A DNA stretch of 52,341 nt, taken from IMG/VR virus record IMGVR_UViG_3300013126_000013; one strand, given 5' to 3'. Every line of letters begins with the position of its first letter. The first letter of the stretch is position 1. Below the pieces are notes generated by a model. That model was not told the origin of the DNA. It saw only the letters and a program-made list of their open reading frames with translations, and ran no database searches. The position numbers and the translations under genes were made by a program. Source of the stretch: a virus. Lineage: Duplodnaviria; Heunggongvirae; Uroviricota; Caudoviricetes. Shown one piece after another: positions 14,208-22,577 of the stretch.

Positions 14208-15500
14208 TTAAGTAACTTCTTGCCAACTCATTGAACCAAGTACATCATCTCCAGAACCATTTGAACAACACGCTAAGGTAAATGTGAAATAAGTCCCAGT
14301 AAAACTGTTTCTCTCTAACTGGTACTTAAATAAATCACTTTGTGAAGGAATTGATCCGGTTGATTGCGAAGTCGTAGCAAAATATCCTGTATCCGTATCT
14401 TCACCGCCGCTCATTGCTGTGCCAGTGATATTATATTGAACGTTACTATCAGCTAAATCAACCCAAGTGCCAGCCGTGATTGTTGCGTCTTTTGTTAATT
14501 TATAACGATAGTTGCCGTTAGTCACCCCAAGTAATGAAAAACTTGTAGGTATTACTATACAATCTGGTGTAGTCGATTTTAATCTAATAGAGATGATTGG
14601 ATAAAATGTATTTGCGGAAGTTAGATCTCTGGCTGCATTTGTCGCTAAACCTAATGATCTAGATCTGCCACGTATCTCGTATCCACCTTCTGAAATTACT
14701 GTTGAACATACTTGTTTAAGTGTTGAATTTGATGCAGTTGCTCCAATGTTTTCTATCTCAAACCTTAATGGTAAACACGCAGTGGTAATATATGTCGTCG
14801 TGATTATGTTTGAGTGATGAAAACTGTGACAATGTACAAAAGCACCGTTTATAACAAAGCCCATTCTAACAGTGCCTAAGCCCAACCATTCTAAATCTGT
14901 GAACAAAATCTGTGCTTTAGATATATCTAAGGTAAGACCACTTGGTCCAGTACCATCAAGTTTATCAATATTCCAATCGGCCTTTTCAGCAATAGTGTTA
15001 ACGACACTACCGGTCACTGAACTACGTTCTACAAAGCGAATATTCGATCCATTTAATTCAAGGTAGTGCCCATTGTTGGTGCCATAATATCCAACACGTT
15101 GTCTTAAATTGGCCTTTGCCGCATTCATTACAAATGTTGTTAAGATCAGTAAACTTTTACCTGGCTGATAAGCAAATACTCTTTTTGATTCTCTGTATAC
15201 ATAGTCACCAGATGCTGTACCTATGCTAAGATCTACAAGTCCTTGATCAGAGTTAAACGTAGCTGTGCTACTGCCGCCAGCGGTTGCTGTTGCAAACTTG
15301 CCATTATCTGAATACCTATGAAAGCTATCGAACAATGTAAATGGATTTGAAACTCTTGCTCGGCCAAACGCATCAACTGCAACACCAGTTGGGTTCGACG
15401 AGCCAACTAGATTACCATACTGATCGGCTAACATTACTGTTTCAAACAGCGTCTTATTATCACTGGTGTACTGATGAGTATTTTTGTTAAACTGTGCCAT
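14208..15500 (-). CDS. Beta-rich probable virion structural protein
   Basis: Starts MAQFNK (TAATG overlap); DAFGRARVSNPFTLFD, YQPGKS, WLGLGTVRMGF; Thr/Ser/Gly-rich. Confidence 0.65.
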   Translation of the reverse strand: MAQFNKNTHQYTSDNKTLFETVMLADQYGNLVGSSNPTGVAVDAFGRARVSNPFTLFDSFHRYSDNGKFATATAGGSSTATFNSDQGLVDLSIGTASGDYVYRESKRVFAYQPGKSLLILTTFVMNAAKANLRQRVGYYGTNNGHYLELNGSNIRFVERSSVTGSVVNTIAEKADWNIDKLDGTGPSGLTLDISKAQILFTDLEWLGLGTVRMGFVINGAFVHCHSFHHSNIITTTYITTACLPLRFEIENIGATASNSTLKQVCSTVISEGGYEIRGRSRSLGLATNAARDLTSANTFYPIISIRLKSTTPDCIVIPTSFSLLGVTNGNYRYKLTKDATITAGTWVDLADSNVQYNITGTAMSGGEDTDTGYFATTSQSTGSIPSQSDLFKYQLERNSFTGTYFTFTLACCSNGSGDDVLGSMSWQEVT

Positions 15501-16732
15501 TAACGCTGCCATCCTTTGATAATTTCAGGCGAAAAGTTTGCACGGCTAAACTGAAGTCGATCGACTAGTTTTACTGCATTTTTGCCCATGTGATCGATTA
15601 CAACAAATCCTTCTTGCTCTGTGACTTTATAGCCATCAGCAGTTTTAAGGAACGTTCCAATCTGTTTTGCTTTATCTAGTTTTCGTACAATGAGATGCTT
15701 GGCATCAACAATGAGATTATACATATCAAAGATTTTCACAATTTCAGTTTTAGGTGTATTTGCGAAGTACTTCATGACTTCAGCACGTTTCGCTTCACCT
15801 GCGGCCTTTGCCTTATCTGTTGCTTTCTTATCGATCTCTTTCTGATAGAAGTCATGCACGTACTTCGTAAGACCATCGACAAACTGAGTTGTATTACCAA
15901 TACGTTCGCCGACTCGCACCTTTGAGTTAATATATGCTTTTACTCGAATGAGCAGATCGTCATTGTCAGAAATACCATCAAGAGAAGATCTCTTCAAGCC
16001 AGAAAAGATCTTTCCAGCTTTCGACAAGAGTTCAGTAATTTCTTTCGTTTCAGCGGCGTTGAAGTTTGCCGAACCAGAAACGTCTTTATAGGATGCATCT
16101 ACTGACCAGACCGATTTTGTTTTCTTGAGGCCGCTTGCGATCTCCTCTCCAAAACTCGCTGACATTGATTCAAAAGAGTTTCCTCTGTATGTAGTGTGCC
16201 AGACCACACCGATTCTTGAGGCAAGGATTTCACGAGCAAGTTGGCTGTTCTTCGGTATCGCGTAAACAATCGTGTTAGGATGGAAAGTAATATACGGTTC
16301 TCCATCAATATCCACTTCTCGTATATCTTCTTTCGAATATAAGAAGTCACCTTGCACCACTCCTGTAATGCCGAGCTTTGAAAGTTCTTCAAGAGCAACT
16401 TTCAGCTTAGCGTTCAAATCACCTGATGTATCTGCATCAATATCAGCTGGTGTCTTATACACCTTTGGGTCCTTATTGAAGATACCCTTCTTTGCCACAA
16501 AGAATTTACCATCGCTTGGATCAATGCCGGCAAAGACTGCAGGAGCACCATCCCACTTGATCGTTACGTTAACAGACTTTGCAGAGCTTCCTGCTAGCAT
16601 GTCACGAAGAGAACGTAGATAGTTAATAGATTGACGAACACCTTCGACGCCAGCATTTAAGATGTTATCCTCGAGATGCTCCATGTGAGTGTTCTTTGAT
16701 TCTACGAGAAACCGGTCGAATGATAGCATCAT
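15500..16732 (-). CDS. DUF6267-like protein with covalent nucleotidyltransferase (ligase-like) motifs
   Basis: KNTHMEHLED N-terminus; TIKWDG (motif I), VQGDF (III), EQEGFVV (IV), VKLVDR (V). Confidence 0.7.
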   Translation of the reverse strand: MMLSFDRFLVESKNTHMEHLEDNILNAGVEGVRQSINYLRSLRDMLAGSSAKSVNVTIKWDGAPAVFAGIDPSDGKFFVAKKGIFNKDPKVYKTPADIDADTSGDLNAKLKVALEELSKLGITGVVQGDFLYSKEDIREVDIDGEPYITFHPNTIVYAIPKNSQLAREILASRIGVVWHTTYRGNSFESMSASFGEEIASGLKKTKSVWSVDASYKDVSGSANFNAAETKEITELLSKAGKIFSGLKRSSLDGISDNDDLLIRVKAYINSKVRVGERIGNTTQFVDGLTKYVHDFYQKEIDKKATDKAKAAGEAKRAEVMKYFANTPKTEIVKIFDMYNLIVDAKHLIVRKLDKAKQIGTFLKTADGYKVTEQEGFVVIDHMGKNAVKLVDRLQFSRANFSPEIIKGWQR

Positions 16733-20049: not shown

Positions 20050-20070
20050 TAGGCCAAGCGCACTTTTTTG

Positions 20071-20078
20071 TATAAATA
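20071..20078 (+). promoter_or_regulatory. T4-type late promoter for the homing endonuclease
   Basis: Exact TATAAATA 31 nt upstream of GTG 20109. Confidence 0.75.
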
Positions 20079-20108
20079 ATCGTATGGGTAGGAAACTTGG
20101 AGTAGATC

Positions 20109-20756
20109 GTGGTAGAGCATTCGCCATATACATATTTAGTGGGTTGGACCAAACATGATCTTTGGTACTATGGCGTGCAGTATAATTCAAAGGCTCGACC
20201 AGAGAATCTTTGGACTACATATTTTACATCTTCTAAGATAGTCAAGACCATAAGAGAAAAATATGGCGAACCTGATGTAATTGAAGTACGAAAAATCTTT
20301 AGTAATAAAGACGACGCAAGATTGTGGGAACATAAAGTCTTACGTAGAATTGGTGCAAGAAAGTCTAAACGATGGTTGAACCAAACCGACAATTTACATC
20401 ATTATCCTAGAAGTCCAAAATCACCTTGGAATAAGGGTAAAAAACTATCGGCCGAGCAAAAAGAAAAGATCCGTGATAGTCTTAAAGGTCGAACTCTGTC
20501 AGACGAACACAAAGCAAAGATGTCAGTTGCACAACAAAAACGTGACAAGTCTATATCAGATGAAACCAGACTCAAAATGAGAAATTCAAAGGTCGGAAAG
20601 AATACGACACCCGAGACAAAGGAAAAGATGAGAATTGCAAAACTTGGGATAAAGAAAGAACTAGTTAAATGCCCATACTGTGATAAAGGTGTCTCACCAC
20701 ATCTTTTTAATCGCTGGCACAACAAAAAATGCAAATTTTTTGAAGCGATTACGTAA
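20109..20756 (+). mobile_element. Free-standing Seg-like GIY-YIG homing endonuclease with NUMOD3 repeats
   Basis: YTYLVGW...WYYGV (GIY-YIG variant), YFTSS, E..WE..L, LN; repeated S.E.K.K(M/I)(R/S) NUMOD3 units; C-terminal CPYC...RWH...C; opposite strand to its neighbours. Confidence 0.85.
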
Positions 20757-20774
20757 AATCATAATAAATACTTG

Positions 20775-20900
20775 TATGGGTGCGTGTAATCACGTTAATT
20801 AACGTAGAGGCAAGTGTGATAGCATACAAAAACACAGATGGAACAGTTGGGGTCGCATCAAGAATGCCGGTGGGGTTCCGCCCAACATTCACGTATCGTG
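20775..20900 (+). ncRNA. Candidate structured non-coding RNA
   Basis: No ORF; AATAAATA late-promoter variant at 20763-20770; five manually found helices including an end-closing stem; terminator immediately downstream. Confidence 0.5.
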
Positions 20901-20906
20901 CACGGT

Positions 20907-20940
20907 GAAAAGCCGCTCAGTTTTGGGCGGCTTTTCCTTT
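20907..20940. terminator. Bidirectional intrinsic terminator
   Basis: GAAAAGCCGCTC-agtttt-GGGCGGCTTTTC, 12-bp stem with A and T tracts on the flanks, between convergent units. Confidence 0.8.
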
Positions 20941-21129
20941 TGCAGGATCATCTGGATACTTAAGAGTAAAGAACGGTGGAGTGAATCCATCGAACCCAGA
21001 TCCAAGGTTAAGCGAACGACATAGCTTGACTGCAGAATCTTTATCTACACGGCGTGCTACGATGAGTTCGGATCCTTTTTCAACGATCTCGTACGCGTTT
21101 TTGTTTTCATTTACTCGGTAACCCATCAA
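20917..21129 (-). CDS. Hypothetical protein
   Basis: Directly downstream of gp41; CRSLNLGSGFDGFTPPFF. Confidence 0.65.
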   Translation of the reverse strand: MMGYRVNENKNAYEIVEKGSELIVARRVDKDSAVKLCRSLNLGSGFDGFTPPFFTLKYPDDPAKGKAAQN

Positions 21130-22577
21130 TTAAGTCCTCCAAAATTCGGTTTCTTTTTCTTAAAGCTGCTTAGCCGCTGTGGTTCAAGCTCATAGCCTGG
21201 CTGAAAATCTGCTTCTTGCATCATCGACGAACCATCAAAGAGAGGTCGATCTCTTTGCTCGATCTGCTTAGGTCCACCAGTGATACCTTCTTGTGCAGAC
21301 TCTTCGACATCAAAGAGGCGCATCTTCGAACGGTCAATACCAACCACGAAGCGCTTAGGACTGTCAACACTACCCCAACGATTCTTTAGCTGTTTGACGA
21401 GAAGCTGTCCACGACTTTCATGATCTTCTGTTGAGATGAGAGCAAACATGAAGTCAGCAGTTGCAGGTAGACCAAACGATTCTGATGTATCTGTTAGTTC
21501 AACATCAGAGTTACCATAGCCAGAACGAGTGGTTTGTGTCGCAGTCATAACTGGAACATTGAACTCCATTGCAAGGCCACGAAGCTCTTCTGCGATCGCT
21601 TTAATCATCATATAAGAGTTCATGTTAGCGCCGTGCTTCAACCGAGCACTCATACAGATGTTCAAGTAATCGATAAAGATAACATCAGGCGCAAAGTTCT
21701 TCTTCAACTTCAATTCATTCAACAGATGACGGAAGTGGTTTGCACCAGCAGAACTCGTAGGATATTCTTTTACGATTAGTTTGCCCACTGTTCTTGCTTT
21801 TATTTTTGCGATCTTCGAGTTATAGATAGGCTTTGGCAGTAAACGAAGATCATCAAGAGTCACATCAAGAAGATTTGAATCGATGCGTTCTGCAATACGC
21901 TCTTCAGCCATTTCCATTGTAATATACAGAACGTTCTTACCAGCAGATAGAGATGCAGCAGCACAATGAGTCATGAACAAAGTCTTACCAACACCGGTGC
22001 CGGCAAGAGCAACCGATAACGATTTCTTACTCAAGCCACCCTTTGTAATCTTGTTGAAGTACTCAAGATCAAACTCGAGCTTCTCTTCTACTCGATGATA
22101 GAAGTCAAAGCGTTCATCTGCGTTCTCAAGAAAGTCGTGACCAACATTCGTATCAAAGCTTACGCCGAGTGCGGTACTCAATAGCTCTGGGATTGCTCCT
22201 TTGTCGAGATCTTTAATCTTTCCATCGAGAACAAGAATCGATTGACGAACGGCATTATAGATCGCTTTGTCTTGACAGAACTTTTCGGTGGTATTGACCA
22301 ACCAAGTCATATCAGTCTTTTCGTCGTAAGTCAGCGAATCAAGAGTTGCATTGACTTGTTTGTATCGTTCTTCGTTCAGCGAATTTGATGCATCGACTGC
22401 GATCTTAAGAGCAGCAATCGTAGGCAATCCATTATACTGGTCGATATATGATTTGATTGTAGAGTAGATAAACTTTTCGTTCTGGTCTTCGAAATATTCA
22501 TCTTTGAGAAACGGTAGAACAGTTCTTACATACCCCTCATTATGAATCATGCCTGCTAAGATTGTCTGTTCGATCAT
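21126..22577 (-). CDS. 41: Replicative helicase (T4 gp41)
   Basis: LAGTGVGKT, YITMEMAEERIAERID, IKEYPT-like VKEYPT, IFIDYLNI, TATQTTRSG, TSESFGLPATAD, QLKNR. Confidence 0.97.
   Translation of the reverse strand: MIEQTILAGMIHNEGYVRTVLPFLKDEYFEDQNEKFIYSTIKSYIDQYNGLPTIAALKIAVDASNSLNEERYKQVNATLDSLTYDEKTDMTWLVNTTEKFCQDKAIYNAVRQSILVLDGKIKDLDKGAIPELLSTALGVSFDTNVGHDFLENADERFDFYHRVEEKLEFDLEYFNKITKGGLSKKSLSVALAGTGVGKTLFMTHCAAASLSAGKNVLYITMEMAEERIAERIDSNLLDVTLDDLRLLPKPIYNSKIAKIKARTVGKLIVKEYPTSSAGANHFRHLLNELKLKKNFAPDVIFIDYLNICMSARLKHGANMNSYMMIKAIAEELRGLAMEFNVPVMTATQTTRSGYGNSDVELTDTSESFGLPATADFMFALISTEDHESRGQLLVKQLKNRWGSVDSPKRFVVGIDRSKMRLFDVEESAQEGITGGPKQIEQRDRPLFDGSSMMQEADFQPGYELEPQRLSSFKKKKPNFGGLN

Follow-up and report, generated by a model that had tools for sequence, protein, structure and literature searches.

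A gene for a structured non-coding RNA lies downstream of the replicative helicase gene of a T4-like phage, and we regard it as very likely that the gene is genuine and that its product has the fold described here (Table 1). The window, i.e. the whole 52,341-nucleotide stretch of DNA that was analysed, is part of a T4-like phage genome from lake water and encodes gp41, UvsX, gp43, the clamp, the clamp loader, RegA and gp23. Within it the RNA gene is flanked by a homing endonuclease gene (20109-20756, + strand) on one side and by a convergent 70-aa ORF, followed by gp41, on the other. The original prediction of a novel structured late small RNA at this place is borne out by covariation, by a promoter and terminator that are kept in homologues, by the lack of an Rfam match for the window and eight homologous loci, and by a transcript contig. 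The family is new but of a familiar sort, namely small stand-alone RNAs of phages without assigned function, and it is common in the sequences of uncultured aquatic T4-like phages.

The late promoter box AATAAATA occurs 19 times in the window versus 4.85 expected, a four-fold enrichment, and it stands upstream of 57/57 structured matches in the promoter-bearing, sequence-only set among the matches listed. We infer that a gp55-type late polymerase makes the approximately 160-nt RNA, its late timing being predicted from the promoter alone. The terminator hairpin folds with a z-score of -5.4; a consensus terminator scanner missed the terminator of the window and detected that of the relative L099. 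Since an A-tract precedes the hairpin and a U-tract follows it, the terminator probably acts in both directions. All stretches of sequence named in the original prediction are present at the positions given there. The region had been called ORF-free, which is correct for frames above about 50 aa; below that length, ORFs of 41-47 aa cross it, and homologues carry frame-breaking indels there. Taken by itself, the 131-nt stretch folds like its shuffles (z -0.23), so that the single-sequence fold is at chance level and the case rests on homologues.

Homologues downstream of gp41 were collected as the original prediction had proposed, and compensatory changes proved abundant. A gp41 protein search yielded 80 viral loci, 16 of which carry the RNA downstream of gp41, and one further locus (L073) holds a diverged, longer member. 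Pattern scans of viral and metagenome contigs enlarged the set to at least 100 distinct cores in at least 175 loci. Among the matches listed, 57 distinct promoter-bearing matches of a sequence-only pattern all have a P4 of 6 bp, and 56 of them have the full 3-bp P6; the UGGGGUU loop is present in 57/57, an invariance that is partly imposed, as the loop's GGGGUU belonged to the search pattern. Sequence-only matches without the promoter were truncated members or lacked P4. The carrier phages share only about 55-65% identity in their gp41 proteins, and across them the RNA is maintained by its structure.

When three members of the family were compared with 50,697 phage records by BLASTN, only chance matches came up, and none of ten genomes from cultured T4-like phages (T4, HTVC008M, Melnitz, DLP6, OC, ACP17, C48C1, BUDD, S13 and S-H38) contained a convincing match to the covariance model. 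A scan of bacterial genomes, with 100 loci rescored, gave only chance pattern matches among the matches listed, which leaves absence from cells unproven. The diverged member (L073:6274-6512, + strand, with identical copies in L533 and L534) measures about 230 nt from promoter to terminator; it keeps the late promoter, GGAA and P4, its P6 carries GGGGUU within a loop of 9 nt, and GGCA is missing. This member suggests that the family extends past the present model.

The fold was derived from a main alignment of 49 sequences by RNAalifold, plus pairing counts for the full model. RNAalifold recovered P4 and P6 with zero broken pairs and with compensatory changes in 9/9 pairs. In the full model 89% of cells are paired, versus 69% in shuffles and 32-50% when the model is slid, and two-sided changes occur in 26 of 29 pairs. 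A model-fitted alignment of metagenome matches agrees with the full model, but leans towards the model. Covariation upheld much of the fold that had been proposed from the single sequence, namely the core of the closing helix P1, the hairpin P2, the helix P4 and, inside P4, the hairpin P5, though the last is optional among members. Two proposed elements did not survive comparison. The hairpin GTGTG/CATAC (20814-27) is strain-specific and gives way to the conserved P3, which a T at base 20832 lengthens in other strains. The crossing pair GGAAC/GTTCC, offered as a possible pseudoknot, shows zero compensatory changes, has its outer pairs broken in 9 and 15 of the 49 sequences and competes with P6, a helix with a conserved loop that the original prediction did not contain; the two invariant A-U pairs of the crossing pair cannot be judged by covariation.

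Table 1. Features of the RNA gene and its surroundings, in window coordinates.
Feature	Position	Strand	Remarks
Original late promoter and first 6 RNA nt, left behind	20071-20089	+	16/18 identical to 20764-81
Homing endonuclease gene, optional, NUMOD3 motif	20109-20756	+	Interrupts the RNA's 5' end at base +6
T4-type late promoter box AATAAATA	20763-20770	+	Predicted +1 is A20776
Non-coding RNA gene	20776-~20938	+	~163 nt including terminator; conserved core 20780-20896; stand-alone, with its own signals
P1, closing helix	20780-86/20890-96	+	87.5% of cells paired; 6/7 pairs compensatory
P2, hairpin	20792-20805	+	Variable length; 96% paired and 5/5 compensatory (model-fitted alignment, metagenome matches)
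GGCA junction segment	20806-20814	+	Near-invariant GGCA; GGCU in two later members
P3, hairpin	20815-18/20833-36	+	Variable loop
GGAA junction segment	20840-20843	+	Invariant
P4	20846-51/20881-86	+	Encloses P5 (optional) and P6; 100% paired; 6/6 compensatory
P5, hairpin, optional	20855-58/20864-67	+	4-6-nt bulge instead in 16/49
P6	20868-70/20878-80	+	3-bp stem, 7-nt loop UGGGGUU (20871-77); 100% paired in 49; nine stem variants
Intrinsic terminator	20907-20941	+	Hairpin 20907-36, A-tract before, U-tract after; overlaps the stop codon of the 70-aa ORF
70-aa ORF, conserved, between gp41 and RNA	20917-21129	-	Not an obligate partner of the RNA
gp41-type replicative helicase gene	21126-22577	-	Constant neighbour of the RNA

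The 3' strands of P6 and P4 are contiguous, without a linker, and P1 follows directly in most members. This arrangement suggests that P1, P4 and P6 probably form a continuous coaxial stack with the UGGGGUU loop at its tip. The GGCA and GGAA segments flank P3. The invariant bases show no compensation among themselves, and a search for tertiary covariation between junction positions found none, except that the base preceding P4 may be linked to the second pair of P4, a signal that may be phylogenetic. The energy of the comparative fold exceeds the predicted minimum by about 10 kcal/mol, so that this fold probably gains stability from a partner or from tertiary contacts.

Transcript data support both ends of the gene. 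A 195-nt contig from a freshwater metatranscriptome (X16) covers 20775-20919, its loose ends being terminator sequence on both sides. The same 30 bases open and close it, as is characteristic of a cycle, here of 165 nt. At the join, the first U of the tail of the terminator meets the A that lies six bases past the promoter box, where a T4 late transcript is expected to start. Since the join thus connects the predicted +1 to the terminator, both predicted ends are independently supported, and the claim that the RNA has its own late promoter and terminator, signals conserved in homologues, agrees with the ends of this contig. A second RNA run (X24) gave a linear contig only through the locus. 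None of the DNA loci examined contains the joined form, nor is it reported for two DNA runs. The X16 contig is one contig of one study, from a related strain, and contigs carry no strand; its depth of 26 versus 4.4 for its neighbours mixes strains and hence gives no expression level. The contig supports a discrete transcript with both predicted ends, and its joined ends reflect either a ligated circle or a library artefact of end-to-end template switching.

What precedes the endonuclease gene is identical to the promoter and the first six RNA bases of L099 and L148, relatives that lack the endonuclease; what follows the gene is a variant of this promoter and 5' end. Moreover, in runs X12 and X24 contigs pass straight from 20068 to 20764, skipping 20069-20763. 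The skipped gene and the duplicated promoter and 5' end thus identify the endonuclease as an invader of the RNA's 5' end, whose entry left the RNA with its expression signals. Because the insertion came with a rebuilt promoter, it suggests that the phage needs the RNA. An 85% identical endonuclease copy occupies the same site in G047. A role of the endonuclease as a partner, in the manner of an RNA-guided nuclease, was ruled out: among 74 loci inspected it stands beside the RNA only in the window, G047 is a second case, and close strains lack it.

The position of the RNA is highly conserved. Among the members listed, 77 of 78 distinct ones lie 3' of gp41, in either orientation and mostly within 0.2-1.7 kb, and most gp41-adjacent members were found without the use of gp41 in the search. 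The sole member without gp41 in its fetched 6.9-kb locus (L372:657-780, + strand) was excluded from the model, yet scores 46 bits. In a FastTree phylogeny of gp41, 43 carriers with the convergent arrangement of the window cluster in a single supported group, joined by one contig that is probably cut off too soon; the co-directional arrangement recurs in several deep lineages, and the lineage with the cyanophage S-H38, HTVC008M and Melnitz is without the RNA. On this unrooted tree, the distribution agrees with an ancient gene that was inverted once and lost several times. RNA-less relatives often have a late promoter at the same place, where it drives the next gene, and RNA-less gp41 contigs checked for a relocated copy had none on these fragments. 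The 70-aa ORF was ruled out as an obligate partner, as the RNA occurs without the ORF in 5 loci and the ORF without the RNA in 11. It represents a family of small phage proteins with a C-terminal LNxGxGFxGxTPxFF motif, usually directly after gp41, and matches no Pfam family.

Two complete carrier genomes each have one copy of the RNA, an alphaproteobacterial-type permuted tmRNA, and 10 or 42 tRNAs. From this tmRNA type, the hosts would be alphaproteobacterial. Permuted tmRNAs of this type were located at L677:11305-11644 (-) and L681:598-968 (-), and the tmRNA of G047 has its own late promoter box and a tag frame ending in ALAA. The 42 tRNAs of the closest complete relative include one with a CUA anticodon (L670:18607-18682, - strand), a possible amber suppressor.

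Comparison with known RNAs gave no match to a catalogued family. The original prediction, which could match the RNA to no tRNA, tmRNA, RNase P or known riboswitch, had proposed an Rfam search; with Rfam 15, no family came at or near its gathering threshold for the window (to E 10), for eight homologous loci (to E 5) or for most of two complete genomes. ARAGORN and Rfam identify the RNA as neither tRNA nor tmRNA, and carriers have a separate tmRNA. The RNase P and self-cleaving ribozyme families are likewise Rfam-negative, and GAGGCAAG is only superficially CR-I-like, the complementary CR-V being absent from the alignment. Y RNA/YrlA, the partner of Ro60, was also Rfam-negative, and a TROVE gene is absent from two complete and two partial carrier genomes. 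The position is not that of a riboswitch or cis-acting leader, as the RNA has its own terminator and the next gene is convergent in the window's clade. As to antisense or guide targets in the phage's own genome, the longest matches in two complete genomes were 11 and 14 nt, versus 11-14 nt for shuffles.

Several phage RNAs share features with the family, and the literature searched held no description of it. Stable RNAs C and D of T4 (rnaC/rnaD; species 1 and 2) are likewise small stable RNAs (139 and 119 nt) of a T4-type phage with function unassigned, and lie near a GIY-YIG endonuclease gene; unlike the present RNA they stand in a tRNA cluster, with no late promoter or terminator of their own in the T4 record, and the covariance model finds no match in them even with filters off; homology was found in neither sequence nor structure. 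The manA, wcaG and PhotoRC-II motifs (PMC2864571) are also covariation-found structured RNAs of aquatic T4-like phages, but they are putative cis-regulatory 5' UTR elements present in Rfam, and did not match here. The RNA anti-CRISPR rAcrIIA1 (10.64898/2026.06.03.729762) may be a parallel as a structured small phage RNA that acts in trans by mimicry; it differs in that no CRISPR repeat or guide-like segment was seen here and that our RNA has a late promoter. The viral candidates of Fremin et al. 2023 (PMC10690425) come from the same source, IMG/VR, with the same kind of evidence, and the family may be among their >10,000 unnamed candidates; the main text mentions neither helicase nor DnaB.

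A further likeness concerns P6. T-box and RNase P RNAs, like the P-loop of 23S rRNA, read CCA ends, and they do so via short UGG or GGU segments. The P-loop (helix 80) has a 3-bp stem and a 7-nt loop starting with UGGGG, as P6 does, the E. coli element at 2246-58 having the loop UGGGGCG. However, the P6 loop ends in UU rather than CG, its closing pair is G-C in 48/49 sequences, the fold around P6 is unrelated, and the rest of the RNA shows no other resemblance to E. coli 23S rRNA. In the P-loop, G2251 and G2252 pair with the CCA end of tRNA (PMC7049736).

Five readings of function were weighed, ranked in the order of a translation-linked decoy or adaptor, virion cargo, a small-molecule sponge, a ribozyme, and a role at the DNA level or in cis. 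The first, which we favour tentatively and by analogy as plausible though short of probable, is that the RNA may act in trans as a decoy or adaptor whose P-loop-like loop binds a host translation partner. The RNA is a stand-alone unit of free orientation with no target in its own genome, with invariant unpaired bases and a native fold above the predicted minimum, which indicates binding of an outside partner; an outside partner is also expected from invariant bases that do not compensate one another. The P-loop architecture of P6 and the tRNAs and tmRNA encoded by carriers place a translation-linked role first, and the covariation with its invariant unpaired islands and the endonuclease insertion accompanied by a restored promoter and 5' end count in the same direction. 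Against it, the P-loop likeness amounts to 7 nt and a stem length and could be chance, tmRNA and tRNAs are also present in related RNA-less phages (Melnitz), and the loop, whose invariance is partly pattern-imposed, has 9 nt in L073.

As a mechanism, we propose that the transcript of the gp55-type late polymerase would form the long P1-P4-P6 helix capped by the UGGGGUU loop, with GGCA and GGAA closing the junction around P3 and the loops of P2, P3 and P5 free to vary. The RNA would be stable, possibly through end-to-end ligation, and its unpaired bases would bind in trans a conserved host partner that does not co-evolve with it. The likeliest partner would be in translation: the loop could base-pair with the CCA ends of tRNA or tmRNA, or it could be bound by a protein that recognises loops of this type. 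Translation would in this way be protected or redirected while virions are made. A bolder version, in which an abundant, end-ligated circular RNA captures tRNA or tmRNA 3' ends or their reader proteins through the P-loop-like hairpin and is possibly delivered by the virion, is a long shot. If true, such a mechanism would mean RNA-based phage control of host translation or evasion of tRNA-directed defence. Binding of CCA ends, or travel in the virion, would constitute a new mode of phage control over the host.

A well-supported structure with defined ends is rare among stand-alone phage RNAs. The family offers about 100 natural variants, a precise fold, a promoter and a terminator at mapped positions, a small number of invariant bases and some indication of circularity. 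It can thus be probed in vitro, screened for ligands and partners and taken to structure determination even though no phage that carries it is in culture.

Virion cargo is the next reading, and we consider it unlikely: the late RNA would be circularised by a phage ligase, packaged in the head and delivered with neighbouring capsid-targeted proteins for anti-defence or host takeover early in the next infection. The RNA borders a late cluster in which the ORF proteins at 16729 and 15500 start with leaders like T4 capsid-targeting ones, a cyclic 165-nt contig was seen, and G047 encodes Rnl1- and Rnl2-type ligases; yet the circle comes from a single contig, and G048 carries the RNA with neither ligase family. 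The DUF6267 protein has weak fold matches to DNA and RNA ligases, but they are not significant (best E 0.035), and DUF6267 occurs near gp41 equally often in RNA-less phages and carriers. Not being restricted to carriers, it was ruled out as a specific partner of the RNA. This protein (window 15500-16732, - strand) has a capsid-targeting-like leader and an invariant KxDG motif, and its confidently predicted model weakly resembles ligase-type nucleotidyltransferases.

It is rather improbable that the GGCA/GGAA junction and the loop form a small-molecule pocket, e.g. for an immune signalling nucleotide that an abundant RNA would soak up. Invariant purine-rich junctions with variable peripheral hairpins are typical of riboswitch aptamers, and the RNA has both, in a terminated unit that controls no downstream gene. 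However, riboswitch matches in Rfam were zero even at E up to 10, and late expression is ill-timed against early immune signals unless the RNA is packaged. A ribozyme that cleaves itself, or that processes the tRNA or tmRNA precursors of the phage in trans, is equally hard to credit. The small conserved multi-helix core and the processing needs of the carriers' many tRNAs and two-piece tmRNA would accord with one, but known ribozyme families are unmatched and the P4 and CR-V elements of RNase P are not visible in the alignment. Self-cleavage is also not favoured by the X16 contig, which is unbroken through the core and joined at the +1 and terminator rather than internally.

Least likely is a role in cis at the helicase gene, as an R-loop primer or origin or as a mere bidirectional terminator insulating the replication operon from the late cluster, for although the near-constant place 3' of gp41, the G-rich loop and the A- and U-tracts of the terminator speak for it, several observations speak against it. 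The RNA keeps its promoter and terminator whichever way it is oriented to gp41, which disfavours a cis or antisense role, and a terminator needs no covarying core of 115 nt. In one clade the whole unit is inverted, one member lacks gp41 in its locus, late promoters at this place in RNA-less relatives mean that synteny may be inertia, and the T4 late polymerase is not known to prime origins.

Other elements also occupy the region after gp41. A different conserved non-coding element stands directly after gp41 at approximately L047:5400-5520, L056:5420-5520 and L057:5425-5520; it is Rfam-negative and consists of a hairpin, whose loop is rich in CUCUCUCAC, and the sequence GACCUGAGYAUGUC after it. 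In L194, L225, L237 and L239, IscU- and IscA-like iron-sulphur assembly genes, identified by inspection only, lie between gp41 and the RNA.
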